Source: an uncultured virus (IMG/VR IMGVR_UViG_2648501187_000001) (lineage: Duplodnaviria; Heunggongvirae; Uroviricota; Caudoviricetes). Taken from it: a stretch of 64,000 bases of DNA. Positions within the stretch are counted from its first letter, which is position 1. Every line of letters begins with the position of its first letter. The notes under the pieces are model-generated. The model was not told the origin of the DNA. It did no database searches and saw only the letters and a list, made by a program, of their open reading frames with translations. Positions 13,199-57,821 of this stretch are shown piece by piece. The translations under genes and the position numbers were made by a program. Where the stretch lies: IMG/VR virus record IMGVR_UViG_2648501187_000001; one strand, 5' to 3'.

Positions 13199-14473
13199 AT
13201 GGGCGTGGACAGGAACGGGAGGAGCCACAGGCCGAGCGGACTGCCGCAGGGGTATGCGGGCACGTTCGACAGGACGGGCGGGGATGCGGGCGGCGACGTG
13301 GCCCCGCCCGACCCGCTGATCGCCATGGCGAGCGAAAGCATGCGCATGCGCGCGCTGACCGACCATACACAGGTGAAAAGCGCGTCGGAGACGCGGGGCC
13401 TGCTCGACATGGCCGACCATGTCGAATACGGGCCGGACGGCGCGATCCTGTACGACGGGGACGGGAACATCCTGTTCCGTGAGGATCCGTCCGTGCCCGG
13501 ACTCGACTCGACGGTGATGCGGCACGATCCGAAAACGCAGGCCGCGGTTCGAGCCGCGTTCCAGGCGGACCTGGGCGAATACCCGGCCGCCGGCCGGCGC
13601 GCCCTGATCCGTGCCGCGAACCGGCATGCGAGCGCGTATTCACGGCGCCGCGCCATCGATTCGAGCCCGAACCGCAGGTATCTGCCCGCATCCACGATCG
13701 CGTCGAGCCTCGCCCGGCGTGCCGACCGGGACACGGCGGACCGGATCCTGCGCGAACTGCACTACGAGGACGCGAACGCGAGCGCGAACGTGATCCGCGC
13801 CGGCTACCCGGACGACAAGGCGAGCGCGTTCAAATTCATCAACTACACGAAGATCCGACGCGACAAGGACGGCAGGCCGGTGCACGGCGAATGGACCGAC
13901 CGGGACGGGAAGCGCAAGAGCGGGATCATGCCCGAACCGCGGGGGGCCGCGTCCCGCGCCTACCTCAGGATGCTGTACCAGCCGACCGACGGCGTCCCCT
14001 CGAAGCAGGAGTGCGACCGCATGGCCCACGTGTTCGCCCGCATGGACGATCCGGACATCCAGGCCAGGGCGTTCTGGAACCTGTGCCACGGCAACGCGAA
14101 CCCGGACGACCGGTGGGACGACGTGAACTTCGAAATCGGGCTGATCGGCCAGAAAAGGACGGACAGGGGCGGCGCCGCGCTGCTCGACGCGTACAGCCGG
14201 CGCAAAGGCGGTCAGGGCAACGCGGCGCGCATGCTCGCCTACAGGAAATGCATGAGCCGTGACGCGGCCGTCCGTTTCCTCGCCATGGACGACATGGACG
14301 CGCGGCGCGCGCACACCCAGTACACGCGCCGCCGTCGCAGCAGGACGACGGGGCTCATGGAGGACGTGAAGCCGAAACGGCTCACCGAGATGCGCGCGTT
14401 CATCCACGCGGTCTACCAGATCCCCAACCGTGAGGTCGACGAGTACCGGGCCGTACGGGACGCGGACGCGTGA
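13199..14473 (+). CDS. Hypothetical protein with N-terminal DRNxRxHR-GLPQG-AGTF tag
   Basis: SD GGAAAGGAG precedes ATG 13199; the N-terminus is shared with ORFs at 50344, 57821 and 47979. Confidence 0.75.
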   Translation: MGVDRNGRSHRPSGLPQGYAGTFDRTGGDAGGDVAPPDPLIAMASESMRMRALTDHTQVKSASETRGLLDMADHVEYGPDGAILYDGDGNILFREDPSVPGLDSTVMRHDPKTQAAVRAAFQADLGEYPAAGRRALIRAANRHASAYSRRRAIDSSPNRRYLPASTIASSLARRADRDTADRILRELHYEDANASANVIRAGYPDDKASAFKFINYTKIRRDKDGRPVHGEWTDRDGKRKSGIMPEPRGAASRAYLRMLYQPTDGVPSKQECDRMAHVFARMDDPDIQARAFWNLCHGNANPDDRWDDVNFEIGLIGQKRTDRGGAALLDAYSRRKGGQGNAARMLAYRKCMSRDAAVRFLAMDDMDARRAHTQYTRRRRSRTTGLMEDVKPKRLTEMRAFIHAVYQIPNREVDEYRAVRDADA

Positions 14474-14487
14474 CGATCATGGAAGAA

Positions 14488-14551
14488 AAGAGAGGGGCCG
14501 TCCGGTTCCCGCCTGCCCCGATGGGGTTGCGGGACCGGACGGCCCCTCTTC
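14488..14551. terminator. Inverted repeat between convergent genes
   Basis: AGAGGGGCCGTCCGGT ... ACCGGACGGCCCCTCT. Confidence 0.7.
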
Positions 14552-14569
14552 CTGTGCCGGAACGGCCCG

Positions 14570-14863
14570 TCATGCGACGGGTCGGGGTTCGGCGGGCTCC
14601 CAGTCCTCGCCGATCTCCTCCTCGTTGACCCAGTCGCGCTCCCACAGGGAGTAGCCGCCGGCCAGCGTGTATTCCACGCCGGTCAGGCCGTTCAGGTCGG
14701 CCACGTGCAACGCGTCCTCCTTGGACGCGCACCATGTGGCGTTCTGCGCGTCCGGCTCCCATGCGCCGTCCGTGCCGTCAAGGTCGGCGTCGTACAGCCA
14801 TGCGCCGTCCATATCGCGGCGCACCGCGTATTCGACGCCGCCCTTACCGTTCAATCGGACCAT
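14570..14863 (-). CDS. Small acidic hypothetical protein
   Basis: SD GAAAGGAAG; GCATAG box upstream at ~14909; protein-like composition. Confidence 0.65.
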   Translation of the reverse strand: MVRLNGKGGVEYAVRRDMDGAWLYDADLDGTDGAWEPDAQNATWCASKEDALHVADLNGLTGVEYTLAGGYSLWERDWVNEEEIGEDWEPAEPRPVA

Positions 14864-14908
14864 GTCGTCTTCCTTTCGTCCATGATTGATGCCGTTTTCC
14901 GAAGCCCG

Positions 14909-17604: not shown

Positions 17605-17969
17605 GCTATTGCTCCTTCAATCCAGGGACGGATATCGTCACGCCGCCCCTATGCGCGTGCGACGCATCATGCCACGCCCCGTCGAACAGACGGCGGCGCG
17701 GCCCCCGGGCATCCGGCGCAAGCCGCGGACGAAAACGAAAAAAAGGAGACAAAGAAAAGGAAAAAGAGAAAAAGAGCAAAAGAGGAAAACACGATACGAC
17801 ACCATCCCATCAGCCATCAGAAAAAAAAGACAGGACACCGACACCCAGGAACACACGCGACGGACACCACACCATAACGGAAACCACACCACAAAACAGC
17901 ACCACATCAAGGGGAGGGATCGTTTTCCCTTGCAAAAAACCGGGTTTCGGGGGCGCATAGCCGCCCGCC

Positions 17970-24401: not shown

Positions 24402-24673
24402 ATGGCCTCCGTGAGTTCCGCCGCCACCCGGTTCAGCAGTCTCGCATGTTTGAGGTCATGGGCCTTCACGCACGTGTCGTACAGGCCGAGCGCCAGGGTG
24501 GCCGCATGCGACGGGTCCGCCGCCCGGGCGACGCGGGCCGGCTCCACGCCCGCCTCTTTGAACAGGTTCAGGGCATGACGCGCCCTCGCCCGGCGTCGAT
24601 CGTACTCGTTGTCCTCAAGCCAGGCCTCAATGACGCCGGCCAGGCGGCGCATGTCCTCGATCGTCTCGTCCAT
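24398..24673 (-). CDS. Small hypothetical protein
   Basis: SD GAAAGGGG; GCATAC box at ~24712; its stop overlaps the next start. Confidence 0.65.
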   Translation of the reverse strand: MDETIEDMRRLAGVIEAWLEDNEYDRRRARARHALNLFKEAGVEPARVARAADPSHAATLALGLYDTCVKAHDLKHARLLNRVAAELTEAM

Positions 24674-24748
24674 GGGTGGTCCCCTTTCTCGATGGTCAAC
24701 CGTCCGGCCTTGTATGCGTCCCCCGGCCCCGCGCATAGCCCGGCATTC

Positions 24749-26044
24749 ATGAAACGTCTCCTGCCCTTCCTGCTCGCCGCCGGCCCGCCGGCGCTCGTCC
24801 TGCTGCTCGCGCTCGCCATGGTGGTCGTGGGCGCGCCCGCGGGCATGACCGCCACCACCGCGGCCACCATGGCGGACATGGCCGACTGTACGGACGACAC
24901 GGACACGACGGCCGCGGCGGCGACGGGGACGACGGTCACGCCCAACGACGTGGCCGTGTCCCTCGCCAGGGCGTTCGCCAAGGCCGGGTATTCGAGGGCG
25001 AGCACGGCGGGCGTGCTCGGCGTCATCCAGTTCGAATCGGGCATGAACCCCGCGCAGGAGCAGATCGGCGAACCCGATCCCATGCTGCGCGGCTACGGGC
25101 TGAACCAGTGGACGCCGCGAAGCAAGATCCGCGACTGGATGGACGCGAACCACGTGTCGGGCGAGGATTCCGACGCGGACGTGCAGATCCGCATGCTCGT
25201 CGCCACCGCGCAGACCGATTTCAACAACCATTTCCTCGCCGCCGTCAGGGCCGAGGGGCACGAGCCCACCGACAACGACCTGCGCACATGGTGGCTGAAG
25301 GCCGACAATCCCGAGGATGCGGCCGTCGCCTGGATGGCCGGCTACGGGCGCCCCTACTGGGCGGACCGGCATGAGAAGGAACGCGAGCAGTACGCGCGCT
25401 CCTACTACGATTCGAAGGAGCTCGCCGACATCGACTTCCCGTCCGAATCGAATCCGGACGGGAAGAAGGACGCCGCCTCCCCGTCGGACACGTCGGACAC
25501 GGACGCGTCATGCGACGCGGATGCGGACGATTCGTCCGACGGGGACGCGAAATACGGGGATGTGGGCGGCGCTCCCACGAACACGCATGACTTCGGCTGG
25601 ATGTGCGCCACGAAGCTGAAGATCTGCCATGCCGGGGACATGGGCGCCCCTCCCCTCGACTGGCAGGCCATGGGCGACTACCAGTGCTACTGGTATTGGC
25701 TGGCCCGCTCCTGGCTGGTGCATGACGGGGACGTCATCAACCCGCACACGGCGAACGGCGGGCAACTGTCCGACTGGGCGGCGGGCACGAAGGGGTGGAC
25801 GCGTTCCGACGAGCCCAGGCCGGGCGCGGGCGTCTGCTTCTGGGGCGGCGGCAACAACCACGTCGCGTTCGTGGAGAAGGTGGACAAGGATCCGTCCGGC
25901 TGGAAGATCATGATCAGCGAGGGCAACTTCAACGACGGGGGCGCGGGCCTGTGGACCAGCTACAACGCGCGCTGGCTGACGAAAGGCGAATACGCGGCCG
26001 CCTCCGGCAACGGGTTCTTCTGGAAGGACAGCTGGAAGCTCTAG
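24749..26044 (+). CDS. Conjugative peptidoglycan hydrolase (phage-tail lysozyme + CHAP), VirB1-like
   Basis: TAGVLGVIQFES, GYGLNQWT, YQCYWY, HVAFVE and ISEGN motifs; N-terminal TM. Confidence 0.88.
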   Translation: MKRLLPFLLAAGPPALVLLLALAMVVVGAPAGMTATTAATMADMADCTDDTDTTAAAATGTTVTPNDVAVSLARAFAKAGYSRASTAGVLGVIQFESGMNPAQEQIGEPDPMLRGYGLNQWTPRSKIRDWMDANHVSGEDSDADVQIRMLVATAQTDFNNHFLAAVRAEGHEPTDNDLRTWWLKADNPEDAAVAWMAGYGRPYWADRHEKEREQYARSYYDSKELADIDFPSESNPDGKKDAASPSDTSDTDASCDADADDSSDGDAKYGDVGGAPTNTHDFGWMCATKLKICHAGDMGAPPLDWQAMGDYQCYWYWLARSWLVHDGDVINPHTANGGQLSDWAAGTKGWTRSDEPRPGAGVCFWGGGNNHVAFVEKVDKDPSGWKIMISEGNFNDGGAGLWTSYNARWLTKGEYAAASGNGFFWKDSWKL

Positions 26045-26964: not shown

Positions 26965-26999
26965 GCGCGACGCCTATGCGCGCATAGGCGTCGCGCATG
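26962..26999. promoter_or_regulatory. Perfect 38-bp palindrome spanning two divergent start codons, with two GCATAG boxes
   Basis: CATGCGCGACGCCTATGCG|CGCATAGGCGTCGCGCATG. Confidence 0.8.
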
Positions 27000-28391: not shown

Positions 28392-28652
28392 ATGAACGAC
28401 GCATACGAACGACTCACCATCGGCCAGGCGCAGACCCTGGCCCGCATCATCGACGGCCTGCGCGACCACGGGTTCGACCCCGACGGGCAGGGCATCCACA
28501 CGCCCAACCTGCACGTCGAACCCGGGGACGGGACACGCGTCAACTGGTGGCTCGACGGCGACACGGCGTTCGCCAACGGCAGCATGGACGCGCAGGGGCA
28601 CGGCGTATGGTGGACGCGCCGCGCCTACGCGCCCACCCTGCGACGCTCCTAA
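28392..28652 (+). CDS. Small hypothetical protein
   Basis: GCATAC box 8 nt before the ATG. Confidence 0.7.
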   Translation: MNDAYERLTIGQAQTLARIIDGLRDHGFDPDGQGIHTPNLHVEPGDGTRVNWWLDGDTAFANGSMDAQGHGVWWTRRAYAPTLRRS

Positions 28653-31600
28653 TCCAGGGAACCGTCGACGCGCACCACCACCGGGATCGCGCTCGCCGCA
28701 TCCCCCACCTGCAGGTAGGCGACCGACCCGCGCAGCAGCCCGCCCGTCTCCGGATCCCTCAACGGGTACAGGCTCTCCCAGTCCGGGGCCCGGGAATCCG
28801 GATCCACATACCTGTCATGCATCATGCGCGCATGCATGCGCCCGTCCAACGGCTGGTTCGCGAGCCGGCAGGCGGCCTGCGCCTGGCTGTCGCGGCCCGA
28901 ACCCTCGTTGCGGGCCCCCACGGCCAGCACGTACACCTTGCCGACGAAATCCTCGATCCCCGCGTCCACGAACTCGTCGGCCTTCTGGGAGAGCATCATC
29001 ACCATGTAATGCTGGTCGCGGGCCAGACGGCCCATACGGTCGACGACGCTCCGGCCGAACCGGTCCTGCAGCAGGCTCCACGCCTCGTCGATGACGACGG
29101 CCCCGTTGCGGCCGATCACCAGGCAGGAGGCGCCCAGCGCGGCCATGCGGCACACCCAGCGCTGCACGTCGGTGGGCGCGCCCTGGATCTCCTTGTCGGT
29201 GATCACGTTCAACGAGCCCGCGCTGATCAGGGTCATGCCCTGGCTCAGGGACAGGCGGCGCCCGCCCGGCTCCGTCCCGTAGATGAGCGGCATCAACGGG
29301 TCGTTCTTGACGGCACGGTCCAACACGGGCCGGATCCTTTCGACGAGCGGGTCGATGTCCTTCGCCTCCCGTCCCCTATGGGAATACTCCTCCCAGGCGA
29401 GGCGCACGCATTCGCCCAGACAGTCGGCGCCATGGCGCAAACCGTAGCCGACGATGCTGGACACGCCCATCTCCCAGGCGCGGTCCGGGTTCGCGCCGCC
29501 CGTGATCTGGCTGAGCATCGCGACCGACGTCTGCACGATCGTGTCCGTCATATGCCTGGGGATGCAGCGCAGCGGGTCGAGGATGCCGCGCGCCTCCGGC
29601 CGGTCGAGCTTGACGACCACGCCGCCACGTTTCCTCACGAACGGTTCGAAGTCGGATGATTTCGGTTTCGGATCCCAGAAGACGACGGGGATCTGCACGC
29701 CGGGATGCTCGGGGTCGGGCAGACGCCCCCATTGGGCGGCGACATGCAGGCCGAGCCGGGTGTTATGCGTGGGCACGTAGCCGCCGATCAGGTACGTGCG
29801 ATCGGGGCTGGCAATGCTCAGACAACGGTGCGGGCAGTCGGCGATCGGCCGGATGCCTTTCACGTACAGCCATTTCGAGGTCTCACGCAATTCAGTGGGG
29901 AGAAGCGCGCGTTTGCGCGGCAGGGAGAACACGGGCAGGCTTGTGGTGAACGTGAGGCGCAGACGGTCGCGGGTCTCGTGGCGTTCCCCGTCCGCCGTGT
30001 ATCCGGCCTTCGTGCGGGTGGCCTCGTGCACGACGACGCCCAGGGAGCGCAGAAGACGGGTCAGCCCGTCGACGATCGGCTTGTGGTCGATGGACTGGGT
30101 GAACTCGACGCTCCCGTTCCGGTCGATGGCGCCGTCCTGGTCGAGCAGGCCTCGCACGAGTTCGAGCCTCTGTTCGACATCGGCATGGAAATAGGGTTCG
30201 GGGATGTGCTTGTCGCCGTAAAGCCCGTTCGCCCGGAGCTGTCGGACAAGGCGTTTCGCGTAGGTCTTCTGCGGGTCGCACGCACTCCGGGTGACCTCGT
30301 ATCCGGCGGTTCGCAGACGGTTCTCCAGATGGTCGAGGTCGCCGTTCGACGGGTCGGAAGCGAAGCCGCCGCCGGTCTTCGACCCGTCAGCCAGCCATGC
30401 GCCGAGCGTCCACGGGTCGATGGGCAGGTCCGTGCGGACGCCCTGGACGGGGGCCGTGGCGCGGATCGCCCAGTTCGCCTGCCCGCCGTCGGCGAGCAGC
30501 CCCTCGTCGAGCATCTCGCGGGTGGTGACGGTCTGTTCGCCGTGTCCGGACCCGGGTTCGTCCCGGTACCGCCAGCCGATGCGGTCGGCGAGGCGGGCGA
30601 GGGCGAGCGGCGCGGGCCATGCGACGCGCATGCGACGGGCCGTTCCCGCAGGCTCCGCCCGCGGCCCGTCGTAGGATCTCAGGGCGGACTCGAACGCGCC
30701 TTTCGATACGCCGAGGTCCCCGAACCGTTCCAGGAGCCAAGCCGTGTCGATCGGTTCGGCGGGAGGGTCGGCGATGAGCCCGTCGAGCCTGGCGAGCCGC
30801 AGCGCCCTGGCTTCGACCCCGAAACCGTTGCCGACGGTGTGCTCCCACCTGTCGCGGATGTGCCCGAGCAGCGGGGCGGGCACGTAGAAGCGTCCCCCGG
30901 GCCTGTTGCGCGCCCTGCCGGGCTGCATGCGGGAGGGCACGTCGGCGAAGCGGAGCGCGTTCCTCACCCACGTCTCCCCGCCCTTGCCCGCGAACGGCGC
31001 GACGAGGGGCCGGACCTCGCGCCAGATGCGTTCGCAGTCCCACCATTCGTCCATGCCGTGTCCGGCGGCCATGGCGCGCAGCCGTTCCTGCGCCTTCCGG
31101 ACCCGTTCGCGGCGTTCGAGGCTCTTCCGGTGTTTGCCGGTGCGGGCGAAGTTGCGGTCGCGCCATGTCCACGCGCACCATTGATGGTCGCCGCTGGCTT
31201 TGATCCTCTGCCCGTCGGACAGGACGATCTCGTACATGTCGTCGTCACCGATGGGGCTCATGCCGAGAATCGGGTAGGTTTTCCCGTCGCGCGCATAGAG
31301 CATGTCGCCGTCCTCGAGGTCGCGCAACGGCACGAGGCCGCCCTCGGGGAACCTTTTCTGCGGGGGGACGGGGAGAGGCGTGTCGAGGGAAACCGATTTT
31401 CCGGATCCTGTGCTGCCCACGATTATGGAAATCGCTTTCCCACTGCGTCTGGACGCGGCGAACGGCGAATCGTAGACCGGCTGCCCGTCCGCCTCCGTGA
31501 CGCCCACGAACGCGCCCGGCAGGTCGGAGTCCAGGCCGCGCCCCGAATCGTCGCCCGTCATGGAACAGCCCGCGAGCCCGCTGAACGCGAGGATCGGGGC

Positions 31601-32797
31601 CGGCCAGTACAGGGGGGACGGATCGTATTCGATCATGTCGTCGGAACCGATCTGCATGTCCTCGAACGCGGCCTCCTGACGGTCCGGGTTCAACCCGACG
31701 TGCCCCGGATAGGGGACGCGGTTCGACTGCTCCACGATCATGGGCAGTGCGGCGTGCGCATGCGCCTGGACGAGCGTGGGCCACGGCTTGCCGTCCGCCT
31801 GGTATTCGCCGTTCGCCGCCTCCAGCTCGCGCGCCACGCCCAGGTTCGCCTTGCGGCCGCCCGCCGCCTGCTCGTACGCCTTGTCGAGCACCTTGTCCGC
31901 GTCCTTGTCCAATTGCTCGCGGGTCATCTCCCCCGGTTCGACCAGGCCCTTCACGCTGATCGCGACCGCCCCGCACCGGCTCGCGTCCAGGAGGCCGGCC
32001 GCCCAGTCGGAGCCGGGGGCGGTGTTGTTCTCGCCCTTGAAGGGGAGCACGCCGAGCGTGACCACGGTCAAAGGGTAGGAGCCGGGAATCCTCGCCGACC
32101 ATTTGCGGCAGTCGTCGACCTTCTCGCGCATGCGGGCCGCGACGAACGCGGACCGGTAGTCGGGGAACGTGTGCATGTGGTCGTGCTCGACCATGACGGG
32201 CAATCCCTCGGGCTTGCGGTCGGTGGGCCAGAACGCCATGGCGCGGCGCATCGTCGCGTCGGACGGGATGCGGCAGCCCGCGTCCTCCATGAGGGCGCGC
32301 ACATCCTCCAGATCGTGTTCGAACGCGTCGTCGGGCGTCCACCCGTCCTCGTCGGCGACGCCTTTCAGGAACCCTTTCACGCCGCCCTGCCCGCCGCCCG
32401 TGTTCAGCCGGACGCCGAACAGGGTGAACCGGTCGCGCACGGCGAGCCCTTCCTGTTCGGCGGCGAGGCGCAGCCGGTTGTCCGGGTCGAGCGTGGGGCT
32501 GGGTTCGAAGGGGCGCGACCCGCTGACCGCGAGGATGTGGACCCGCCGGTACAGGCCCTTCATGGCCTTGCGTCCGGCGAATGGGACGCGCGGCGTCCGG
32601 TCGGCGAGCCCGCCGAGTATCGACAGCATGGGGCGGGCGGCCTTCAAACGCTCCTCCATGCCGGACGCGTCCGTGACGGACGGCTGGTCGGGCATCCTCA
32701 TGTACAGCCATGCGGCGCCGTTGACCGTGCGCACGAACCCGCCGCCCATATGCCGGGCGAACGTGCCCGTCTCCCTGACAATGCGTTTCCTCGTCAT
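28649..32797 (-). CDS. VirB4-like conjugation ATPase interrupted by an intein
   Basis: Walker A GSTGSGK|T split by the intein; WDPK, VIDEAW and RLARDQ..SQ motifs; exteins total 837 aa. Confidence 0.85.
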   Translation of the reverse strand: MTRKRIVRETGTFARHMGGGFVRTVNGAAWLYMRMPDQPSVTDASGMEERLKAARPMLSILGGLADRTPRVPFAGRKAMKGLYRRVHILAVSGSRPFEPSPTLDPDNRLRLAAEQEGLAVRDRFTLFGVRLNTGGGQGGVKGFLKGVADEDGWTPDDAFEHDLEDVRALMEDAGCRIPSDATMRRAMAFWPTDRKPEGLPVMVEHDHMHTFPDYRSAFVAARMREKVDDCRKWSARIPGSYPLTVVTLGVLPFKGENNTAPGSDWAAGLLDASRCGAVAISVKGLVEPGEMTREQLDKDADKVLDKAYEQAAGGRKANLGVARELEAANGEYQADGKPWPTLVQAHAHAALPMIVEQSNRVPYPGHVGLNPDRQEAAFEDMQIGSDDMIEYDPSPLYWPAPILAFSGLAGCSMTGDDSGRGLDSDLPGAFVGVTEADGQPVYDSPFAASRRSGKAISIIVGSTGSGKSVSLDTPLPVPPQKRFPEGGLVPLRDLEDGDMLYARDGKTYPILGMSPIGDDDMYEIVLSDGQRIKASGDHQWCAWTWRDRNFARTGKHRKSLERRERVRKAQERLRAMAAGHGMDEWWDCERIWREVRPLVAPFAGKGGETWVRNALRFADVPSRMQPGRARNRPGGRFYVPAPLLGHIRDRWEHTVGNGFGVEARALRLARLDGLIADPPAEPIDTAWLLERFGDLGVSKGAFESALRSYDGPRAEPAGTARRMRVAWPAPLALARLADRIGWRYRDEPGSGHGEQTVTTREMLDEGLLADGGQANWAIRATAPVQGVRTDLPIDPWTLGAWLADGSKTGGGFASDPSNGDLDHLENRLRTAGYEVTRSACDPQKTYAKRLVRQLRANGLYGDKHIPEPYFHADVEQRLELVRGLLDQDGAIDRNGSVEFTQSIDHKPIVDGLTRLLRSLGVVVHEATRTKAGYTADGERHETRDRLRLTFTTSLPVFSLPRKRALLPTELRETSKWLYVKGIRPIADCPHRCLSIASPDRTYLIGGYVPTHNTRLGLHVAAQWGRLPDPEHPGVQIPVVFWDPKPKSSDFEPFVRKRGGVVVKLDRPEARGILDPLRCIPRHMTDTIVQTSVAMLSQITGGANPDRAWEMGVSSIVGYGLRHGADCLGECVRLAWEEYSHRGREAKDIDPLVERIRPVLDRAVKNDPLMPLIYGTEPGGRRLSLSQGMTLISAGSLNVITDKEIQGAPTDVQRWVCRMAALGASCLVIGRNGAVVIDEAWSLLQDRFGRSVVDRMGRLARDQHYMVMMLSQKADEFVDAGIEDFVGKVYVLAVGARNEGSGRDSQAQAACRLANQPLDGRMHARMMHDRYVDPDSRAPDWESLYPLRDPETGGLLRGSVAYLQVGDAASAIPVVVRVDGSLD
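29762..31396 (-). mobile_element. 545-aa intein with LAGLIDADG homing endonuclease
   Basis: Starts SVSLDTP; block B ASGDHQW; LGAWLADG and VRGLLDQDG motifs; ends YVPTHN followed by T. Confidence 0.92.
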
Positions 32798-39992: not shown

Positions 39993-40011
39993 CACGCGGA
40001 AAGAGGAAAGA

Positions 40012-41013: not shown

Positions 41014-41192
41014 GTTATGTTCCTCTTTCATGTTTCCGCTACGCGCACGATGGTAGCATCATGCGTGGCTTGTTCCGGTCGGTTTCCTCACATCCCGGGG
41101 ATTCATCCATTCCTGGCGCTTGCCTCGGCTTCAATCATCCCACGGTATGCGTCCCTCGGGAAGCCAACGGATTTAAACCATGAAAGTGAACC

Positions 41193-47670: not shown

Positions 47671-47736
47671 GTCCACCCGTATGCGTCGCCGATCCGACGG
47701 CGTGCGCGCCGGCCCGCCGATGTCCGGAAACGGGCC

Positions 47737-47979
47737 CTACGCCAGTTTCGCCCGCCCCTCCGGCGTCCGCTCGATTTCGTCATATCGGACCAAGGCGAGA
47801 GACATATCTACGCAGTGGGCCTCGCCCGCTATGACGGCGATCGCGGCGGCGCGCGGTTTCGCATCATCGGCGTACCGGCCGGACAGCACGCCCAAGTCGC
47901 CGGACGGCCGGTACGCGCCGGGCGCGCCCTGAGGCAGGACCGGCGCCCTGTGGCTGCGGTTGTTCCCGTCCATCACCAT
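47737..47979 (-). CDS. Small protein with a degenerate DxNNRSHR-LPQG tag
   Basis: GCATAG box at ~48018; SD G9AGG; MVMDGNNRSHRAPVLPQG. It is in frame with an upstream TTG ORF from 48162 that carries one more xTP repeat. Confidence 0.45.
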   Translation of the reverse strand: MVMDGNNRSHRAPVLPQGAPGAYRPSGDLGVLSGRYADDAKPRAAAIAVIAGEAHCVDMSLALVRYDEIERTPEGRAKLA

Positions 47980-48158
47980 GATGATCCTCCCCCCCCCGTT
48001 TTCCCCGATACGGTCGGCTATGCGTGTCAAGCGCATCGAGCCGCGCAACAGTTCGTACGCGACCTGTTCGGGCAGGGACCCCGTCTTCTCCGCGTGCGCG
48101 CCACGCCCGGTCGGGTTCGGCTTCCAGTCGCCCGCGCGCGGCGTATGGAACAGGCTCG

Positions 48159-49688
48159 TCAAAGCAGGTTGACCTGATCCGCGAGACCCAATTGCGCGCC
48201 CCGCCTCCGGCGTCGGACCGCATCCTCCGCTGTGCCCGCCTTGACGCTGTCGTACAACGCGTTCGGCGTGGGCAGCATGACGGCCGCCGTCCGCAAATCC
48301 GGCGCCCCGTCCCCGTGCACGCCCGCCCCGTTCGCATCGTTCGCCCTCGGGGTCGGCAGCTTCGAATCATGCTCCCTGACCTTCTCCGGGTCCATACGGC
48401 CCGGCAGGTCCATGAGACGCACCTGCGTGGACAGGAACGTGCTCCTGTCCAACGGGCGGCCCGACGTGGCCGGGGCGGCGAACACCCCGTCCGACTGCTT
48501 CGGCGTGTACAGGAACCCGTCGGCCGGGATCCCCGCAGCCTGCGCGGGCAGGGGCGCATCCCCCGTCCCATACGCCTGGCCCGGGCCGCCCTTCGCCCCG
48601 TCGGACGCCTTCGGCGTCGCCAAAACGGAACCGGCCGCCGGCTCCGGGACCTTCAGCCACGATTCGGGCACCGTATACACGCGGCCGGCGGCCATCACGC
48701 CGGACTTCGGCCACGCGTCCATGAACACGTCCACGTCCCCGAACAGATCCGGCTCGCCCGTCGTCCACACATCCCTGTCCGCATCCCACACGCCCCATGC
48801 GCGCCCCCTCGGCCTCATGGGCGGCAGTTGGGCCAGACGCCTCAGCCGGGCGTTCGACGGTTCGCGCGCCGACTTCGGATCGCGCGGCCATGCGGTCACG
48901 AAGATGCGCAGCCTGTGGTGGGGGGCGCCGATGTCGGCCGCCTCAAGGCCTCGCCACACCGCGTCGTAGCCCAGATTCGCCAGATCGCCCAGCACACGGC
49001 CGAGCGCCCGGATCGTGGGCGCCGTATGCACGCCGGACAACCGTTCGTCATCCGCCAGCACCATGTCGCCCCTCACCTCGAACACGCGGCGGCCGCACCG
49101 CCTGCACGTGACGGGCGAGCACCGTTCCGGATCCGCATGCAGGAAACCGCGCAGGACGACGGCCAGGGGCTGCGAGGTTTCCTCCTTGGGATCCGGGGCT
49201 TCGAATCCGTCGGGCAGTTCGAGGTCCGGAATTTCGCAGGAGCATAATCCGGCCTTGTCCAACGCTTCGGAGCGGAGCGCGTCCATGCGCTCGTCCTCCT
49301 TGGAGACGCTGATGCCGCTCAGGAGTCCGGCCACGTTCTCCGCGACCACGAGACTGGGGCGGATGATGCCGATTCCCTTGGCGTAGTCGAGCCACAGGCC
49401 GCTTCGCGTTCCCGCCTTCAACCCGGCACGGAACCCCGCAAGAGAAAGGGACTGGCAGCAGAATCCGCCGGCCATCACCTCGATGTCCTTGTATTTCTCC
49501 CAGTCGATTTTCGTGATGTCGCCCAATCGGCGGGCTTTCGGCGCGTGATGGGAGCCAAGGGCGAGAGGCCCGGGTTCGATGTCGGACCATCCGACCAGTT
49601 CCCCCTCGCCGATCGCCTTGGATACGCCGATGTCGAGGCCGAGATAGCCGGAGAACAGGGAAATCGTCTTGTATGTCTTGTTCTGCAT
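48159..49688 (-). CDS. N-terminal half of a split DNA (cytosine-5) methyltransferase
   Basis: Motif I LFSGYLG; GDITKI; motif IV GGFCCQ; RSGLW; motif VI ENV; motif VIII HHRLRIF; xPTP repeats; motifs IX/X absent. Confidence 0.88.
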   Translation of the reverse strand: MQNKTYKTISLFSGYLGLDIGVSKAIGEGELVGWSDIEPGPLALGSHHAPKARRLGDITKIDWEKYKDIEVMAGGFCCQSLSLAGFRAGLKAGTRSGLWLDYAKGIGIIRPSLVVAENVAGLLSGISVSKEDERMDALRSEALDKAGLCSCEIPDLELPDGFEAPDPKEETSQPLAVVLRGFLHADPERCSPVTCRRCGRRVFEVRGDMVLADDERLSGVHTAPTIRALGRVLGDLANLGYDAVWRGLEAADIGAPHHRLRIFVTAWPRDPKSAREPSNARLRRLAQLPPMRPRGRAWGVWDADRDVWTTGEPDLFGDVDVFMDAWPKSGVMAAGRVYTVPESWLKVPEPAAGSVLATPKASDGAKGGPGQAYGTGDAPLPAQAAGIPADGFLYTPKQSDGVFAAPATSGRPLDRSTFLSTQVRLMDLPGRMDPEKVREHDSKLPTPRANDANGAGVHGDGAPDLRTAAVMLPTPNALYDSVKAGTAEDAVRRRRRGAQLGLADQVNLL

Positions 49689-49731
49689 ACATGGCTGTAT
49701 GCGTTCCGAGGCATTCGAAAAAACCCGTCAG

Positions 49732-49786
49732 CCGTTGCAGATGACTTCGCTCTGGCGACAAGCTAAAACAAAGTCATCTGCAACGG
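49732..49786. terminator. Inverted repeat (16-bp arms) after ORF 49788-50192
   Basis: CCGTTGCAGATGACTT ... AAGTCATCTGCAACGG. Confidence 0.6.
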
Positions 49787-49787
49787 A

Positions 49788-50192
49788 TCAATCCTCGACG
49801 ATCCCGTCGGGCGTCCATTCGCATGCATAATAGGGTCCGTTGTCGGTCATCCACCCGTCCTTCCCGTCCGCCGGACGCCCCTCGTAGCGGCTGATGTCGG
49901 CGATGGCCGGATCGTCGGTCTTGTGGAGGCGGATGAGGTCGCCCGGCTCCGGTTCGCGCCGTACGGCCTCGGGCAGCACGGCGTCCGGGTCGGGGAACGC
50001 GGAGCCGTCCCCGACCCAATGGTCGGTGCAGTCCGAGTCCACGATGTAGGATTCGCCCGCATCGGTCCTGCCGGCCAATGCGGGGCGGAAGCGTGACCAT
50101 TCGTCGCCGTCCCGTTGGATCATGATCCCGCCTTTGATGCGGTCGAGGAGGCTTGCGGGCAGGTTCTCCCAGCCGATGATGTTCCCGTTCAT
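49788..50192 (-). CDS. Acidic hypothetical protein
   Basis: The variant box GACGCATGC sits 8 nt before the ATG (MNGNIIGW). Confidence 0.6.
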   Translation of the reverse strand: MNGNIIGWENLPASLLDRIKGGIMIQRDGDEWSRFRPALAGRTDAGESYIVDSDCTDHWVGDGSAFPDPDAVLPEAVRREPEPGDLIRLHKTDDPAIADISRYEGRPADGKDGWMTDNGPYYACEWTPDGIVED

Positions 50193-50343
50193 GCCCGCGC
50201 GCATGCGTCCCCGACGCATGGCCTCCGGTTCCGCGGCCCGCCGTTCCGGAAGGGCGACGTGGCGCGCCTGCTGGCCGAGGGGCATGTCACGCACGTCCCC
50301 GTCGGACGGTTCCGGGTCGGGCGGGGGCGCATAGCCGGATCGC

Positions 50344-51423
50344 ATGGTCATGGACAGGAACAATCGAAGCCACCGGGCGAAGGGCCTCCCCCAAGGGTGT
50401 GCGGGCACCTTCGAGCCGGCGTCCGGCACGGCGGGCGGAGACGTCATGCCGCCCGCCGCCGAGGATCTCGACCCGAAACGCTACGGGCACAAGAGGGCCG
50501 TCAGGCTTGTGAACTGGCGGGTCGAACACGATCCGACCAGCCTGTGGCTGCAAGACCGGCTCAAGGCCACCATGCCCGGCGTGGACGCGGACGGCAACCC
50601 GTTCGACTACCGGGACGAGCCGGTGCTCGACCCGGCGGCCGAGGCGCGCATGATCGACGACGCGGTCTACCGGGAGGATGCGGACGGACGCCCGCACTAC
50701 GGGCGGATCATGCGCGCCCTCGCCTCCTGGTATCCGAACGAGGCGGAACGCTTCGACATGGCGCGCAGGATCGCGGAGGACCGGTGCGACGCGCTGCGAC
50801 GCAACGTGATCGGCGACCCGGCCCGATGCTACTCCGCCAGGCTCGTCGGCTACGCGCTCACCCGCCCCGTGCGCATGGAGGCGATCCTCGCCCGTCCGCC
50901 CTACAATCTGAGCGCGCACCGGATGCGCGTCGGCAAACGGTACATGGACCGGATCGGCGCGTACGCGCGCGAACACGGCGGACGACTGCCCGACAAAAGG
51001 CAGCGCGACCGGATCTGGGACGAGAACATGGGCGACTTCATCCACGAGAAGATCGCGAAGGGCGTCCAGTACGGGCGCGGCATGTACTATTCCGACGGGT
51101 CGAACGCGCGCCCCGAATACCATGGGCGCCCGCCCCGTCTGGACGCGGACGGGAACCCGTTCAACGCGCGCGAGGACTTCGAACGCATGCTGGCCGCCGG
51201 ACGTGCGGAGCTCGGTCGGACGCCCGCCGAATTCGACGACGTGGTCAACAGGATGGACGCGCATGCGGCGTTCGCCCCGGGGGGCGCGGACGCGCACGCC
51301 GCATGGGCGGAGGCGCGCCGGCGCGGCCTGGACGTGCGCCTGGTCGAGGCCGCGCTCGACGTGGACGCGTCGGACGCGGCCGCATGGGAGGCGGAGTATC
51401 AGGCGAGCTCGGGCACCCGGTAG
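50344..51423 (+). CDS. Hypothetical protein with N-terminal DRNNRSHR-GLPQG-AGTF tag
   Basis: GCATAG box 9 nt before the ATG; shared tag; internal DADGNPF x2. Confidence 0.75.
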   Translation: MVMDRNNRSHRAKGLPQGCAGTFEPASGTAGGDVMPPAAEDLDPKRYGHKRAVRLVNWRVEHDPTSLWLQDRLKATMPGVDADGNPFDYRDEPVLDPAAEARMIDDAVYREDADGRPHYGRIMRALASWYPNEAERFDMARRIAEDRCDALRRNVIGDPARCYSARLVGYALTRPVRMEAILARPPYNLSAHRMRVGKRYMDRIGAYAREHGGRLPDKRQRDRIWDENMGDFIHEKIAKGVQYGRGMYYSDGSNARPEYHGRPPRLDADGNPFNAREDFERMLAAGRAELGRTPAEFDDVVNRMDAHAAFAPGGADAHAAWAEARRRGLDVRLVEAALDVDASDAAAWEAEYQASSGTR

Positions 51424-53765: not shown

Positions 53766-54374
53766 ATGACCTATTTCAGCCTGTCCGAGTTCCTTGAACG
53801 CACCGGCGTGAGCGCTTCGACCGCCTATCGGGCGGAACAGCGGGGCGTGATCAGCCCGGCGCGCACGGACGGCGGGCATCGACGCTACTCGCAGGAGGAC
53901 GTGGCGAAACTGCTGGGATTGCAGCATCAGAACCCGGAGAAGAAATGCGTCATCTACTGCCGGGTCAGCAGCGCCGGGCAGAAGAACGACCTCGCCGACC
54001 AGCGAAAGGCGATGATGGATTTCGCCACGGCGCGCGGCTACGTGTACGAGGTGTGGGAGGAGATCGGCGGAGGCATGAACCTCAACCGCCCCAAGTTCCT
54101 GAAACTCGTCAACGGGATCATCGACGGTGAGATAGGCGTCGTGATCGTGGCACACAAGGATCGGCTCGCCCGGTTCGGGTTCGACCTCGTGAAGAACCTG
54201 GCCGACGAGTACGGGGCTCAGATCATCGTCGCCAACCGCACGGACATGAGTCCGCAGCAGGAGATGGTGGAGGATCTGATGAGCATCATCCACACCTACT
54301 CGTGCCGCCTATACGGTCTGCGGAGGTATAAAACAAGCCGGGACCTCCTCGGCGACGGGAGCGGGGAAGACTGA
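53766..54374 (+). CDS. tnpA: IS607 transposase (MerR HTH + serine recombinase)
   Basis: RTDGGHRRY, IYCRVSS, DRLARFGF and RLYGLR motifs; leaderless behind TGcTATACT (-10 at 53753-53758). Confidence 0.95.
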   Translation: MTYFSLSEFLERTGVSASTAYRAEQRGVISPARTDGGHRRYSQEDVAKLLGLQHQNPEKKCVIYCRVSSAGQKNDLADQRKAMMDFATARGYVYEVWEEIGGGMNLNRPKFLKLVNGIIDGEIGVVIVAHKDRLARFGFDLVKNLADEYGAQIIVANRTDMSPQQEMVEDLMSIIHTYSCRLYGLRRYKTSRDLLGDGSGED

Positions 54375-55564
54375 TGCAACGCACGTTCAAGACCCGGTTG
54401 AAGGTCAACGACGTCGAGTCGAACATCCTCGCCCAATGGTGCGGGGTGAGCCGCCTCGCCTACAACGTGTGCCTCGACCAGTGGAACAGGGACTACGAGA
54501 ACGGGGCGAAACACAACTATTATTCGATCAAGAAATGGTTCAACTCCGTCAAACGGGAGATGTTCCCCTTCATCACCGGCGTCAGCAAATGGGTGCCCGA
54601 AGCGGCCATCAAGGATCTCGACACCGCGTTCAGGAACATGTACCGGCATACGGCCAAGCACCCGCGATTCCACAAGAAGGGCGTCCGCGACTCGTTCCGC
54701 ATCGACGGCTCGGTGATAGCCGTAAGCGGGAAAAACCTGAAACTGCCGAAAGGCCTATGCCTGAGGCTTATGGAAAGGTTCAGATATGAGAATCAGGTGA
54801 ACAAGATCAACAACGCGACCATCAGCCGCAAGGCGGGCTACTGGTTCGCGTCCATATCATGTGACGTCGGAGACCCCGCGCGCGAAAACCAAGGCGCGGG
54901 CATCCTCGGCGTCGACGTGGGCGTGAAAAGCCTCGCCGTCTGCTCGGACGGCACGGTCATCGACAATCCGAAGACCCTGTACCGGCGGGAGAAGCGGAAG
55001 AAGCACCTACAACGCATGGTGGCCCGCAAGCAGAAGGGATCCGACAACCAGCGCAAGGCCAAGGCGTTGCTCGCCAGATACGAGTATCGGACGGCCGTGA
55101 AACGCGAGGACTGGCTGCACAAGGCGTCCAGCCGCATCGCCCGGGCCAACCGGGTATGCTTCATGGAGGATCTCAACGTCAAGGGCATGCTCTCCAACCA
55201 TCATCTCGCGAAGGCCGTCTCCGACTGCTCGTTCAACGAACTGCACCGTCAGCTCGCATACAAGACCACGGTGCGCGAAATAGACCGATGGTGTCCGAGC
55301 AGCCAAACATGTTCCGACTGCGGCAGCCGGAAACCCATGCCTCTGTCCGAACGCGCCTACCGGTGCGAACAATGCGGCATGGTCATGGACCGTGATCTCA
55401 ACGCCGCATTGAACATACTCAACGTAGGGATGGCGAACTATCCCGAACTCATGCCTGCGGAGGATGACACCCCCGAAGCCACCGGCGCAGCCAGCCGGCA
55501 GGCGACGGCACCCGATGAAACAGGAATCGACCATCAAACACTGCACAAGAACAGGTTTGAATAA
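54374..55564 (+). CDS. tnpB: RNA-guided endonuclease TnpB
   Basis: RuvC GVDVG, MEDLNV and DRDLNAA all intact; Zn finger CSDC/CEQC. Confidence 0.95.
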   Translation: MQRTFKTRLKVNDVESNILAQWCGVSRLAYNVCLDQWNRDYENGAKHNYYSIKKWFNSVKREMFPFITGVSKWVPEAAIKDLDTAFRNMYRHTAKHPRFHKKGVRDSFRIDGSVIAVSGKNLKLPKGLCLRLMERFRYENQVNKINNATISRKAGYWFASISCDVGDPARENQGAGILGVDVGVKSLAVCSDGTVIDNPKTLYRREKRKKHLQRMVARKQKGSDNQRKAKALLARYEYRTAVKREDWLHKASSRIARANRVCFMEDLNVKGMLSNHHLAKAVSDCSFNELHRQLAYKTTVREIDRWCPSSQTCSDCGSRKPMPLSERAYRCEQCGMVMDRDLNAALNILNVGMANYPELMPAEDDTPEATGAASRQATAPDETGIDHQTLHKNRFE

Positions 55565-55584
55565 GAATCGAAAGGCAGGACCGC

Positions 55585-56136: not shown

Positions 56137-56185
56137 AAAAAGGCCCGCACGGCACGTCGCCATGCGGGCCCGGGATGCGCCCCGG

Positions 56186-56602
56186 CTAGGGGCGGACGAG
56201 CAGGAAACGGTACGGGAGCGGATCCGTCTCGCCGCGCATCCACACGCGCAGCAGCGGCCACCCCGCGGCCCGCGCCGCCGACGCCGCATCCGACAGGTCC
56301 GAGACGGCGTCGACGATCAGGTTCGCGATCCCGTCCGCGGACACGAACGCGTCAGGCAGGCCAGGGATGCGCGCCGGCAGGCCGTCGCGCTCCATACGGT
56401 ACAGCTCCCACACGTGCAGCACGCTCGCATCATACGGGTGCGCTTCCGGCCCCGCATGATCCGACCCGTCGCGCAGACGCCCGGCGGCCGCGAGGGCGGC
56501 CGCATGCGGCAGGATCGCGACGAGCCTGTCCGCACGCCTGTCGAACTCGCGGACCGTCATGCCGGACGGCATGTCACGGCTCGAATCCCACGCCACGTGC
56601 AC
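56186..56602 (-). CDS. Hypothetical protein (start uncertain)
   Basis: Downstream of ssb; the frame stays open further upstream without an ATG. Confidence 0.5.
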   Translation of the reverse strand: MHVAWDSSRDMPSGMTVREFDRRADRLVAILPHAAALAAAGRLRDGSDHAGPEAHPYDASVLHVWELYRMERDGLPARIPGLPDAFVSADGIANLIVDAVSDLSDAASAARAAGWPLLRVWMRGETDPLPYRFLLVRP

Positions 56603-56672
56603 GTTCAGGACCCCGTCGAACGTCTCGAACGGGGTCAGCTTCGAATCGGCTATGATACGCCCCCTCTTCCGG

Positions 56673-57347
56673 TCAGACGCCCATGCCCGCGAACGGGTCC
56701 GGGACGCCGGCCGCCGACGCGTCCGGCAGGCCGAACGCCGCCAGCGGGTCGGTTTCGCCGCCGATGCGCTCCCCGTCGCCCGTCTTGACGACCGCGTTCA
56801 GCATGGCGCCCACGCCCGAATTGTCCTGCCTGTACGGGTACAGCCAGATGTTGGCGCGCACGATCGCGCCCGAATACAGTTCGTTGGCGGTCAGACGTCG
56901 ACGGTTCTGGTCCACGACCCAGCCCGCGGCGACGAGGTCGTTCTTCGTGCCGGCCTTCAGGATCCAATGGCCCTCATACTCCTTGTACACGTCCTTCTTC
57001 AGCTTGCCCACGTTGTCGCCCCTGGTGAACACGGCCGTGTCCCCGTCCTCGACGGGCAGGCCCAGGCGCTTCACCCAATCCGCGTCGTCCATGCTGTGCC
57101 CGGCGAACGGCGCGTACGACTTGCCGTCCCTGCCGGGTTCGCCGTCGATGCCGCGGCGGATCGCCTCCGTGCATTTGGCCTGCAGGTCGCGCATCATCTT
57201 CTGGGCGTCCGGATCCTTCTTGTCGAACAGGATGGACAGCGTGTACTTGCCGTTCTTCGGATCCGTGTCGAACAGGTGCGGGAAGTTCGCGATCCCGGGC
57301 ACTGTCACGAGGTTCAGGCGTTCCGCCTGCTGGTTCTGGTCAGCCAT
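56673..57347 (-). CDS. ssb: Phage-type single-stranded DNA-binding protein (DUF2815-like)
   Basis: NFPHLF, KYTLSILFDK, PVEDGD, ELYSGAIVRA and LNAVVKTGDGERIGG motifs; acidic DPF tail. Confidence 0.85.
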   Translation of the reverse strand: MADQNQQAERLNLVTVPGIANFPHLFDTDPKNGKYTLSILFDKKDPDAQKMMRDLQAKCTEAIRRGIDGEPGRDGKSYAPFAGHSMDDADWVKRLGLPVEDGDTAVFTRGDNVGKLKKDVYKEYEGHWILKAGTKNDLVAAGWVVDQNRRRLTANELYSGAIVRANIWLYPYRQDNSGVGAMLNAVVKTGDGERIGGETDPLAAFGLPDASAAGVPDPFAGMGV

Positions 57348-57434
57348 CAATGGGCTCCTTTCCGATCATGGTGGGCCGCCCCACGATGGTTGCGGTCCGA
57401 CGGTTCCCGTCGGCGTCCGGTATGCGTCCCCGGC

Positions 57435-57821
57435 TCACGCGCGGATGCTTTCCGGCCGGAAGCCCACGTCCTGGATGTCCGGCCCGTCGATGCGCACCGT
57501 CGTCAGCTCCCGCCCGTCGAACAGGGCCGCGTACGCGCCGTCCGCGAACGGGATGGAGTCGCCCGCGCACAGGGCGCCCGCCTCGTGGGCGAGCCGGCGC
57601 GCCTGCTCCCCGTCGCCCAGGTCCGCCAGCGATTCGATCCGGTCCTTCAGGCCCCAGGCGCGCGCGTCGTCCTCCACGCCGCGCGCCCGCCCCCGCCGGC
57701 GGGCCGGCGGGGGCGGGACCACGTCCCCCGCGCCGCCGGCCCGCATGGGCGCGAACGTGCCCGCATACCCCTGCGGCAGGCCGCCCGGCCTGTGCGCCCT
57801 GTTGTTCCTGTCCACGCTCAT
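57435..57821 (-). CDS. Hypothetical protein with N-terminal DRNNRAHR-GLPQG-AGTF tag
   Basis: SD GAAGGAG; GCATAG box at ~57852; shared tag. Confidence 0.7.
   Translation of the reverse strand: MSVDRNNRAHRPGGLPQGYAGTFAPMRAGGAGDVVPPPPARRRGRARGVEDDARAWGLKDRIESLADLGDGEQARRLAHEAGALCAGDSIPFADGAYAALFDGRELTTVRIDGPDIQDVGFRPESIRA

Follow-up and report, generated by a model that had tools for sequence, protein, structure and literature searches.

A shared N-terminal peptide on otherwise unrelated proteins of large Bifidobacterium mobile elements may serve as a docking label

The 64,000-nucleotide IMG/VR record IMGVR_UViG_2648501187_000001 (68% G+C; the whole stretch is hereafter called the window) appears to be part of a large mobile element of Bifidobacterium, in which one peptide of ~37 residues, here called the tag, opens several otherwise unlike proteins. 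Sequence comparisons establish that the tag is modular, strictly N-terminal in position, under selection, evolving in concert within each element and restricted to one family of elements, and they support its being a transferable N-terminal label, not the N-terminus of a single paralogous family. The earlier note on this DNA had proposed an address label for co-transfer through a type IV secretion system (T4SS); the idea of an address label is supported by the sequence analysis, and the T4SS route is a reasonable inference from it. We propose that the tag would be a disordered, modular docking label on 8-13 otherwise unrelated soluble proteins per element, carried by a family of large Bifidobacterium conjugative elements, and that one common partner, co-evolving with each element lineage, would read it. 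The partner would most likely be part of the DNA-transfer apparatus, and the tagged proteins, once recruited to it, would accompany the DNA into the recipient and act there at entry. We infer the existence and the identity of this partner, as well as the transfer of the tagged proteins, and to the proposal as a whole we give slightly less than an even chance.

Open reading frame (ORF) lists and a regular-expression scan of all six frames found the peptide at the start of three ORFs of the window, at 13199+, 50344+ and 57821-, with a decayed copy at 47979-, which are the four places at which it had been noticed before. In pairwise BLASTP comparisons only residues 1-26 to 1-37 align (60-68% identity, E 2e-9 to 3e-12), and the bodies of the four tagged ORFs have no significant pairwise similarity. 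A profile of 12 tags, three of them from the window (A3), was run on all six-frame ORFs of the window; the three full copies scored as listed in Table 1, and the degenerate copy, which did not contribute to the profile, reached 30.6 bits (E 1.4e-8) over profile positions 1-26 only. As the best remaining ORF scored only 7.7 bits, the tag signal stands far above chance. The DNA 5' of the tagged ATGs does not align among the copies, and conserved tag residues are encoded by different codons in different copies, so the repeat exists at the level of the peptide.

To follow the tag outside the window we used four further records: the nearest genome (G001, 2.4 Mb, one contig), a second genome of the same genus, Bifidobacterium (G185), the nearest IMG/VR record (G002, 186,745 bp, of which the part at 76.8-153.0 kb matches the window at 93-99% identity) and a sister element (G603, an IMG/VR record of 104,906 bp). 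Running a tag profile against more DNA and proteins, as had been suggested, yielded many further copies on diverse bodies. The window has four copies, G001 12 (all in about 94 kb), G002 13 (10 of them between 155 and 185 kb), G185 nine (in 80 kb) and G603 8-9, the last belonging to a divergent subtype, ...SHKAAGRPDGGQFD.KAGQG.DDDL. Within each of the five records the copies are confined to one element, and two tag subtypes coexist in G001 and G002. In a sample of 201 genomes of the same family, strong multi-copy matches were seen only in G001 and G185, and three single weak matches (21-25 bits) were treated as chance. None of 400 other genomes of the phylum, with only 18 candidates scored per genome, matched, and two scans of 185,579 species genomes gave no real match; their lone match, in a non-coding frame of a Bacteroides-labelled contig, was also put down to chance.

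A search of 1.84 billion cluster representatives with the tag profile brought up 140 proteins with E<=1e-3, of which 54 reach E<=1e-10. The match begins at residues 1-3 in 125 of the 140, and in eight of the other 15 a methionine stands at tag position 1 behind a longer called ORF. Six representatives are repeat proteins and were set aside; three of these (P0091, P0101 and P0118) reiterate 'MP(T/S)GYAGTF(D/N)S...', which corresponds to tag positions 15-29 only, and are probably unrelated. Wherever tagged proteins are named, it is as 'hypothetical protein', and the species are Bifidobacterium longum, B. breve, B. felsineum and B. sp. SO1. The tag is not modelled in Pfam, PHROGs or NCBIfam, and a PDB profile search and the ESM Atlas returned chance-level matches only (immunoglobulin light chains and unnamed clusters). 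Neither the region nor tagged protein 2 had relatives in plasmid and phage databases, and tblastn of the tag and of the junction motif described below against INPHARED, with queries that are short and of low complexity, found nothing. Titles and abstracts on Bifidobacterium integrative conjugative elements (ICEs) and on N-terminal conjugative signals contain no description of the tag, and the portions of the literature retrieved with the motif as text (GGQF, GGQY, GGRF or GGRY; QPRD together with phage) were unrelated.

The bodies behind the tag are of many kinds. No pair among 13 bodies from the window and G001 matches at E<1e-3 in BLASTP, and 101 representatives with bodies of at least 60 aa fall into 41 single-linkage BLASTP clusters at E<1e-5. 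Overall the tag heads about 130 protein clusters, belonging to at least 41 unrelated body groups, nearly always from residue 1. A Pfam scan of 113 representatives, from which 27 of the 140 (short ones and the repeat proteins) were omitted, assigned no family to 107; it found Zeta_toxin in two, above the cut-off, pentapeptide repeats in one, and LPD28, LRV_2 and ATLF-like matches below the cut-off. The bodies of G001 include one Fic/Doc, one LRV_2 and one LPD28 protein, the last again below the cut-off (LPD28 matches score 22.7-23 bits against a Pfam cut-off of 27 bits). The tagged proteins examined are 128-440 aa long with at most one Pfam domain each. The absence of mutual matches among the 13 bodies, the 41 clusters and the different Pfam families support the earlier note's view of a modular label on unrelated bodies. 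No regular immunity-type partner is apparent among the 10 tagged genes of G002 that have a called ORF: downstream of five the neighbour is on the opposite strand, and a small ORF on the same strand follows within 20 nt in one case only.

Two tagged proteins, those starting at 13199 and 57821, were modelled with AlphaFold2 (AF2) from two alignments, one of 20 and one of 10 sequences. Body residues 48-128 of the 57821 protein fold with a predicted local distance difference test score (pLDDT) above 90, and the body of the 13199 protein lies mostly above 85. The two bodies differ in architecture, two helices and three strands in one versus a mostly helical fold of ~360 aa in the other; fold searches with both gave nothing informative (Foldseek E >=0.14), and the best VIA Z, 6.1 over 61 residues of a helical region, was uninformative. 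The tag itself has a pLDDT of 35-43 in residues 1-37 of the 13199 protein and of 42-56 in residues 1-45 of the 57821 protein, and has no secondary structure in either model. Since the bodies are well folded and the tag is not, the tag is predicted to be a disordered extension that lies outside the body fold.

The consensus of the tag reads M-(small)-x-D-x-N-G-R-S-H-(R/K)-P-x-G-x-P-x-G-(xA)-G-x-(F/Y)-(D/E)...D-D-(V/L)-x-P-P. Across 131 aligned tags G14 and G21 are invariant, P16 is kept in 130 and H10 in 129, while D4 is found in 128 of 129, D34 in 121 of 123 and F/Y23 in 129; positions M1, N6, G/N7, R8, S9, P/A12, G18, D/E24 and L/V/I35 are likewise invariant or nearly so. An acidic and proline-containing stretch trails the tag. 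Position 2 holds a small residue in 124 of the 131, and by the methionine-aminopeptidase rule the initiator methionine is probably removed. The tag starts at the annotated ATG in all copies of the window, G001 and G603, and in all eight full-length G603 tags the ATG at tag position 1 lies 6-8 nt behind an AAGGAGG-type Shine-Dalgarno site. By inspection, this consensus, rich in Gly, Pro, Asp and Arg, has neither the hydrophobic run nor the RR motif of Sec and Tat signals; the tag had correctly been described as not hydrophobic. Clamp-binding, PIP-like, L27-like and GGQ/release-factor-like readings were rejected on inspection, as Gln17 and Gln22, which they require, are not conserved.

Tag pairs within the window and G001 have a synonymous divergence (dS) of about 1.0 and a nonsynonymous divergence (dN) of about 0.25 (28 pairs), and pairs within G603 a dS of 0.78 and a dN of 0.13 (15 pairs). 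The tag is under purifying selection at the peptide level, with a dN/dS of about 0.2, and the combination of high dS and low dN indicates that the likeness among tags is old and has been kept at the level of the peptide, not produced by recent duplication or gene conversion. The tags of three orthologous pairs of proteins from the window and G603 are 33-39% identical across the two elements, and 50-74% identical to the tags on unrelated proteins of their own element. By these comparisons the tags evolve in concert within each element, as would be expected if one common partner, differing between elements, read all of them.

The element that carries the tag was scanned with Pfam, PHROGs and NCBIfam in the window, the rest of G002 and G603. 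Its transfer-type genes encode an FtsK-like ATPase, two AAA_10-type ATPases, lysozyme, CHAP and NlpC hydrolases, DUF2637 and ParA; lysozyme and CHAP cell-wall hydrolases are typical of Gram-positive transfer systems. The FtsK-like protein, our candidate coupling protein, has homologues in several Bifidobacterium species, one of which is named 'type IV secretory system conjugative DNA transfer family protein'. Further genes encode large surface proteins, of which one weakly matches the SEC10/PgrA surface-exclusion type, and tyrosine integrases. A replication set consists of a primase-polymerase, helicases, a beta-clamp, a Gp2.5/Enc34-type single-stranded DNA-binding protein (SSB) and exonucleases; DNA methyltransferases are numerous, and insertion sequences and an RNA ligase/kinase pair are present as well. 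G002 and G603 have roughly 25 backbone proteins in common. IMG/VR classes G002 and G603 as proviruses (CheckV completeness 97% and 91%). The Pfam and PHROGs scans found no capsid, portal, prohead-protease, tail, sheath or baseplate family in the window, the rest of the 187-kb G002 or G603, a negative to be read with the many large family-less ORFs and with five ORFs that cross locus borders and lay outside the scan; the PHROGs 'terminase' matches fall on the P-loop part of AAA_10-type proteins of 1063-1382 aa. The 1382-aa ATPase of the window has no PHROGs matches but these, and the ATPase of 1063 aa lies at G002 168198-171386. From its gene content we read the element as an ICE that IMG/VR lists as a provirus.

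A motif resembling the core of the tag occurs in other settings. A profile of the most distant tags (A7) matches P0272, a 1965-aa protein with NUDIX and ADP-ribosyltransferase domains, at 48 bits summed over 5-6 copies; the protein has 5-6 internal copies of QPR-(D/E/A)-P-x-G-x-P-x-GGQW, placed between its modules. The genomic context of P0272 was sought in IMG/VR, where nothing was found. The same motif lies ~50 residues past the Pfam portal domain of a 690-aa ORF of a tailed phage, followed by an appendage of ~195 aa, and recurs in the ORF next to that portal ORF; the phage is genuine and also encodes a terminase, an S78 protease and an HK97 capsid protein. In IMG/VR a looser form of the motif occurs in at least 136 stretches, and the 80 loci that were read contain 81 distinct copies, whose distance from the ORF start varies between 1 and more than 1000 residues. 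Some of them stand right at the N-terminus, others in tandem cassette arrays. The tag core, P-x-G-x-P-x-G-G-(Q/R)-aromatic with a polar or basic stretch before it, fits the description of this junction motif, and hhalign of the tag alignment (A4) against 47 junction motifs (A8) gave a probability of 88% (E 3.1e-6, 19 columns). On these alignments we lean, with some reserve, towards a true relationship between tag and junction motif. If it is true, the tag would be a junction motif without a carrier, of the kind by which add-on modules are marked in polyvalent proteins and in phage head proteins, and the delivery logic of phages and of conjugative elements would be tied together.

Two observations on the arrangement of these motifs may be added. 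In L123-L125 (IMGVR_UViG_3300043210_000004) four copies of the junction motif stand in about 5 kb, two of which share an upstream helix (LAKAELRAALKKYS...) and differ in their downstream domains, like polymorphic-toxin cassette arrays. The tag, too, can occur twice: P0132 has one N-terminal and one internal copy, and the second, internal copies, partial or full, in G603 (L030:12699-13487) and in P0132 lie ~45 and 240 residues past the first. Such double-tagged proteins may represent a stage between tagged proteins that stand alone and polyvalent proteins with several modules.

The proposal that a transfer-apparatus partner reads the tag is favoured by the effector type of a minority of the bodies (Fic/Doc, two zeta kinases, pentapeptide repeats and, below the cut-off, LPD28); passages of the paper on polyvalent proteins list zeta kinase and LPD28 among the domains proposed to be delivered with DNA (PMC5512222). 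Several points weigh against it. Because 107 of the 113 scanned representatives have no Pfam family, the word effector fits only a minority; two tag subtypes in one element would require a single receptor to tolerate both; and at least two tagged genes belong to the conserved backbone beside replication or transfer genes, so that their products may act in the donor. The characterised T4SS substrate signals (the basic C-terminus of Agrobacterium substrates, the Dot/Icm E-block and the XVIPCD) are C-terminal, unlike the N-terminal tag, and to our knowledge there is little documentation of Gram-positive conjugation systems transferring proteins. The presence of the core motif in a tailed-phage portal ORF makes a signal specific to a conjugative ATPase unlikely, unless the flanks of the tag give the specificity, and the provirus class in IMG/VR may leave room for an unrecognised particle. 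The link to the junction motif has weaknesses of its own: a plain HMMER profile of the junction motifs does not find the tags at E<=0.01, and the junction set is partly circular, its pattern having been taken from P0272, which was itself found with a tag profile. Doubtful, in our view, is the broader idea of a single ancient and widespread peptide motif that marks protein modules to travel with the DNA, in tailed phages (within polyvalent proteins and behind portal or MuF carriers) as well as in conjugative elements; the tag would be its actinobacterial form, standing alone, and the tag subtypes would be matched to receptors specific to each element.

Other explanations account for parts of the same evidence. 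The tag might be a processing site, a motif recognised by a protease that either marks where modules are cut or forms a removable propeptide keeping the proteins inactive or marked. The position of the related motif between polyvalent modules and between portal domain and C-terminal appendage speaks for this, as do the disorder of the tag and the acidic and proline stretch behind it, and in passages of PMC5512222 polyvalent proteins are proposed to be cut into units by their own peptidase domains. We nevertheless think it unlikely: the Pfam and PHROGs scans found no peptidase in the element besides the cell-wall CHAP/NlpC hydrolases, a stand-alone domain behind an N-terminal 37-mer needs no cleavage to be free, and element-specific concerted evolution over the whole 35 residues suggests more than a cut site. 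A label for an intracellular hub or for turnover, read by a cytoplasmic partner unrelated to export (beta-clamp, SSB or primase of a replisome, a chaperone, or an unfoldase or protease for which the tag would be a degron), also strikes us as rather improbable. Short disordered terminal motifs are the usual docking route to clamps and unfoldases, the element comes with a clamp, an SSB, a primase, helicases and an exonuclease of its own, and one tagged gene lies between HNH and SSB genes in two element lineages; on inspection, though, the tag has no known clamp-binding consensus (QL[SD]LF-like), Fic/Doc, zeta kinase and pentapeptide bodies have no obvious replisome role, and the related motif is found in phage head proteins.

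Still less probable, to our minds, is a packaging signal by which the tag would load internal proteins into a provirus or a capsid-like or injection particle. It is the provirus class of G002 and G603, the attachment of the related motif to a phage portal protein and the loading of Photorhabdus virulence cassette (PVC) payloads by N-terminal disordered signals, described in passages of PMC13011059, that recommend it; the virion and injection-machine families sought in the element are the ones that the scans did not find, and the 'terminase' matches belong to AAA_10-type proteins. An expression element, in which the 5' coding stretch would serve translation initiation or mRNA stability and the peptide would have no role, is very improbable. 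Over the first 12 codons of eight tags (window 13199, 50344 and 57821; L004-L008), 14 of 21 Arg codons are AGG or AGA, compared with 14% (136/972) in 18 window genes, and several genes start 7 nt past a promoter-like box; this purine-rich 5' coding stretch, with its rare AGG codons, in an element of 68% G+C may indicate an added constraint at the mRNA level. Synonymous sites are nevertheless near saturation while the residues are kept, the invariant Gly, Pro and His persist across subtypes with different DNA, and the G603 tags use ordinary Shine-Dalgarno sites. Scarcely credible, finally, is an ordinary family N-terminus, with divergent full-length paralogues best conserved at their starts, which the earlier note had named as the finding that would undo its claim. 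Nothing beyond the shared N-terminus speaks for it; the body comparisons contradict it by unrelated bodies behind one tag, and the two modelled architectures differ.

Terminal address peptides on modular effector sets of mobile elements are a known kind of system, of which the tag, from its sequence features, appears to be a variant. Phage T4 internal proteins have an N-terminal capsid-targeting sequence that is cleaved by the prohead protease, and phage P1 DarB has an N-terminal packaging determinant; like the tag as proposed here, each is a short peptide at the N-terminus that directs unrelated proteins to a compartment and so lets them pass into the next host together with the DNA. They differ in acting in capsids, whereas no capsid or prohead-protease family was found in the tag element. 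The XVIPCD is a folded domain of about 120 residues. It is the C-terminal module of Xanthomonas T4SS antibacterial effectors, read by the coupling protein VirD4 (PMC8740702), and resembles the tag as one conserved module on many unrelated proteins of a type IV system; it is C-terminal and Gram-negative, whereas the tag is N-terminal, ~37 residues long and disordered. Polyvalent proteins combine 2-15 disparate domains in one fused polypeptide of a phage or conjugative element. It has been proposed that they reach a new host along with the DNA and are split into units by processing (Iyer, Burroughs, Anand, de Souza and Aravind, 2017; PMC5512222); the passages searched of that paper do not mention the peptide. 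Both systems have unrelated effector-type domains on invasive DNA, with proposed co-delivery and with zeta-like kinase and, below the Pfam cut-off among the tagged proteins, LPD28 in each, and P0272, of polyvalent type, has the related core motif between its modules; in contrast to polyvalent proteins, the tagged modules are separate genes, not parts of a giant polypeptide, and most bodies have no LPD or other family.

The payloads of PVCs, extracellular contractile injection systems (eCIS) of Photorhabdus, have N-terminal disordered 'signal peptides' whose loading is helped by the AAA ATPase Pvc15, according to passages of PMC13011059. Those signals and the tag are alike in being N-terminal, disordered, non-hydrophobic and borne by diverse proteins, and those of the PVC are needed for loading an ATPase-bearing machine. 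In the tag element no sheath, tube or baseplate genes were found, and host and machine differ. Polymorphic toxins are known to have demarcation motifs, VENN in CdiA and PxxxxDPxGL in Rhs. In MuF and other polymorphic toxins a conserved N-terminal carrier is joined to variable C-terminal domains; the searched passages of the MuF paper do not mention the peptide or use the words 'motif' and 'linker' (PMC5576092). Here the QPR..GGQW motif likewise lies at the boundary of a conserved carrier (the portal) and a variable domain, and occurs in tandem cassette arrays in IMG/VR, whereas the Bifidobacterium tagged proteins have no carrier domain and no regular downstream immunity gene.

The tag bears on which proteins, if any, Gram-positive conjugation systems send to recipients, and on how these are chosen. 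It would be the first recognisable N-terminal protein-transfer signal of such a system if the proposed transfer is true, and with it candidate cargo can be read straight from sequence: 8-13 proteins in each element and about 40 families of bodies, almost all without known function. A portable, sequence-defined label is a simple handle for fusion-reporter and pull-down work in a commensal that is harmless and, if delivery is true, might be used to load proteins of choice that are to pass from one gut bacterium to another. If it is instead a processing or hub-binding motif, it still represents a large unannotated motif family in the gut mobilome.

Table 1. Positions of the tag copies, tagged genes, boxes and neighbouring transfer-type genes in the window
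Feature	Position	Strand	Remarks
Tag copy 1, 37 aa	13199..13309	+	starts 424-aa ORF; 73.7 bits
Tag copy 2, 37 aa	50344..50454	+	starts 359-aa ORF; 78.0 bits
Tag copy 3, 37 aa	57711..57821	-	starts 128-aa ORF; 70.6 bits
Degenerate tag copy 4	47902..47979	-	~26 positions match; inside ORF 47737-48162; 80 aa from ATG
Tagged gene 1, 424 aa, no known family	13199..14473	+	divergent from FtsK-like ATPase gene
Tagged gene 2, 359 aa, no known family	50344..51423	+	Pfam, NCBIfam and PHROGs scans
Tagged gene 3, 128 aa	57435..57821	-	between HNH gene and SSB gene
Inverted pair of GCATAGGC boxes	13142..13165	.	between FtsK-like gene and tagged gene 1
GCATAGCC box	50329..50336	+	7 nt before ATG of tagged gene 2
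FtsK/SpoIIIE-like membrane ATPase, 1097 aa, candidate coupling protein	9841..13134	-	Pfam FtsK_SpoIIIE, phrog_1358
Lysozyme + CHAP cell-wall hydrolase	24446..26044	+	Pfam Phage_lysozyme2, CHAP
AAA_10 ATPase, 1382 aa, VirB4-like candidate of the transfer apparatus	28649..32797	-	Pfam AAA_10

The three tagged genes of the window (Table 1) have counterparts in G603. Tagged gene 1 is a backbone gene; its protein, which has no Pfam, PHROGs or NCBIfam family, is 48% identical to its orthologue over 376 aa, and the gene is divergent beside the FtsK-like gene in both elements, the G603 ATPase being 38% identical. The orthologue of tagged gene 2 (38% identity over 239 aa) has the other tag subtype. For tagged gene 3, whose start overlaps the stop of the HNH gene, orthology is by synteny, the order HNH, tagged gene, SSB being common to both elements. 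The N-terminus of the FtsK-like protein (window 13099-13134, minus strand), MAYRRNGRSRPK, resembles tag residues 4-13; the resemblance is probably chance, as the G603 orthologue does not have it. Contigs from two RNA-library runs and raw reads from two runs, of a relative at 95-99% identity, span tagged genes 2 and 3. In the RNA-library reads the two mate orientations are covered to about the same depth and no start peak appears at 50344, so these reads do not support a leaderless start and do not show transcription.

The window has 12 copies of the box GCATAGSC where 2.5 would be expected. Copies stand upstream of 13199, 47979 and 50344, and 57821 has a variant with one mismatch, so the earlier remark that each tagged gene has a box holds only loosely; the box is not specific to these genes. 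In four cases (17970+, 26964-, 32797- and 50344+) it ends exactly 7 nt ahead of the start codon, and the first three of these genes are untagged, which makes it a general box at gene starts of the element. Besides the sites in Table 1, copies lie, among other places, at 17955-17962, 26972-26989, 32805-32812 and 48016-48023, and two pairs form inverted repeats in divergent intergenic regions. From its placement the box resembles a promoter element of the -10 type, or an operator, belonging to genes with a short leader or none.

The fourth tag copy is probably a remnant, given that only its first 26 positions match and that its setting is missing or replaced in relatives: the 475 bp at 47688-48163 are absent from G002, which has a TnpB insertion sequence there, and in contigs of related strains from RNA-library runs 1292 other letters take their place. 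A C-5 cytosine methyltransferase in this region (46363-49688, minus strand) is apparently split into ORFs 48159-49688, 47737-48162 and 46363-47676, which have repeated 'PTP..D' motifs; the middle one contains the degenerate tag. Upstream of the methyltransferase gene, at 49731-49788, lies a hairpin with a perfect 16-bp stem, for which no Rfam family scored above chance. Raw reads from two RNA libraries pile up on it to a depth of ~124-137 in one orientation and extend into unlike sequence on both sides, which indicates a repeated, highly represented element.

Two further regions of the window vary among relatives. An IS607-type pair at 53766-55564 (a serine resolvase with a MerR helix-turn-helix, and TnpB/OrfB) is present in G002 as well; a related strain, represented by contigs from two RNA-library runs, lacks it precisely, with 53637 joined to 55577. 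The segment at 38696-41172 aligns to four or five shifted places in G002 (122.0-126.7 kb) at 87-93% identity, and is therefore a tandem array; its units of ~1.1-1.2 kb carry family-less ORFs and differ in number between the window and G002.

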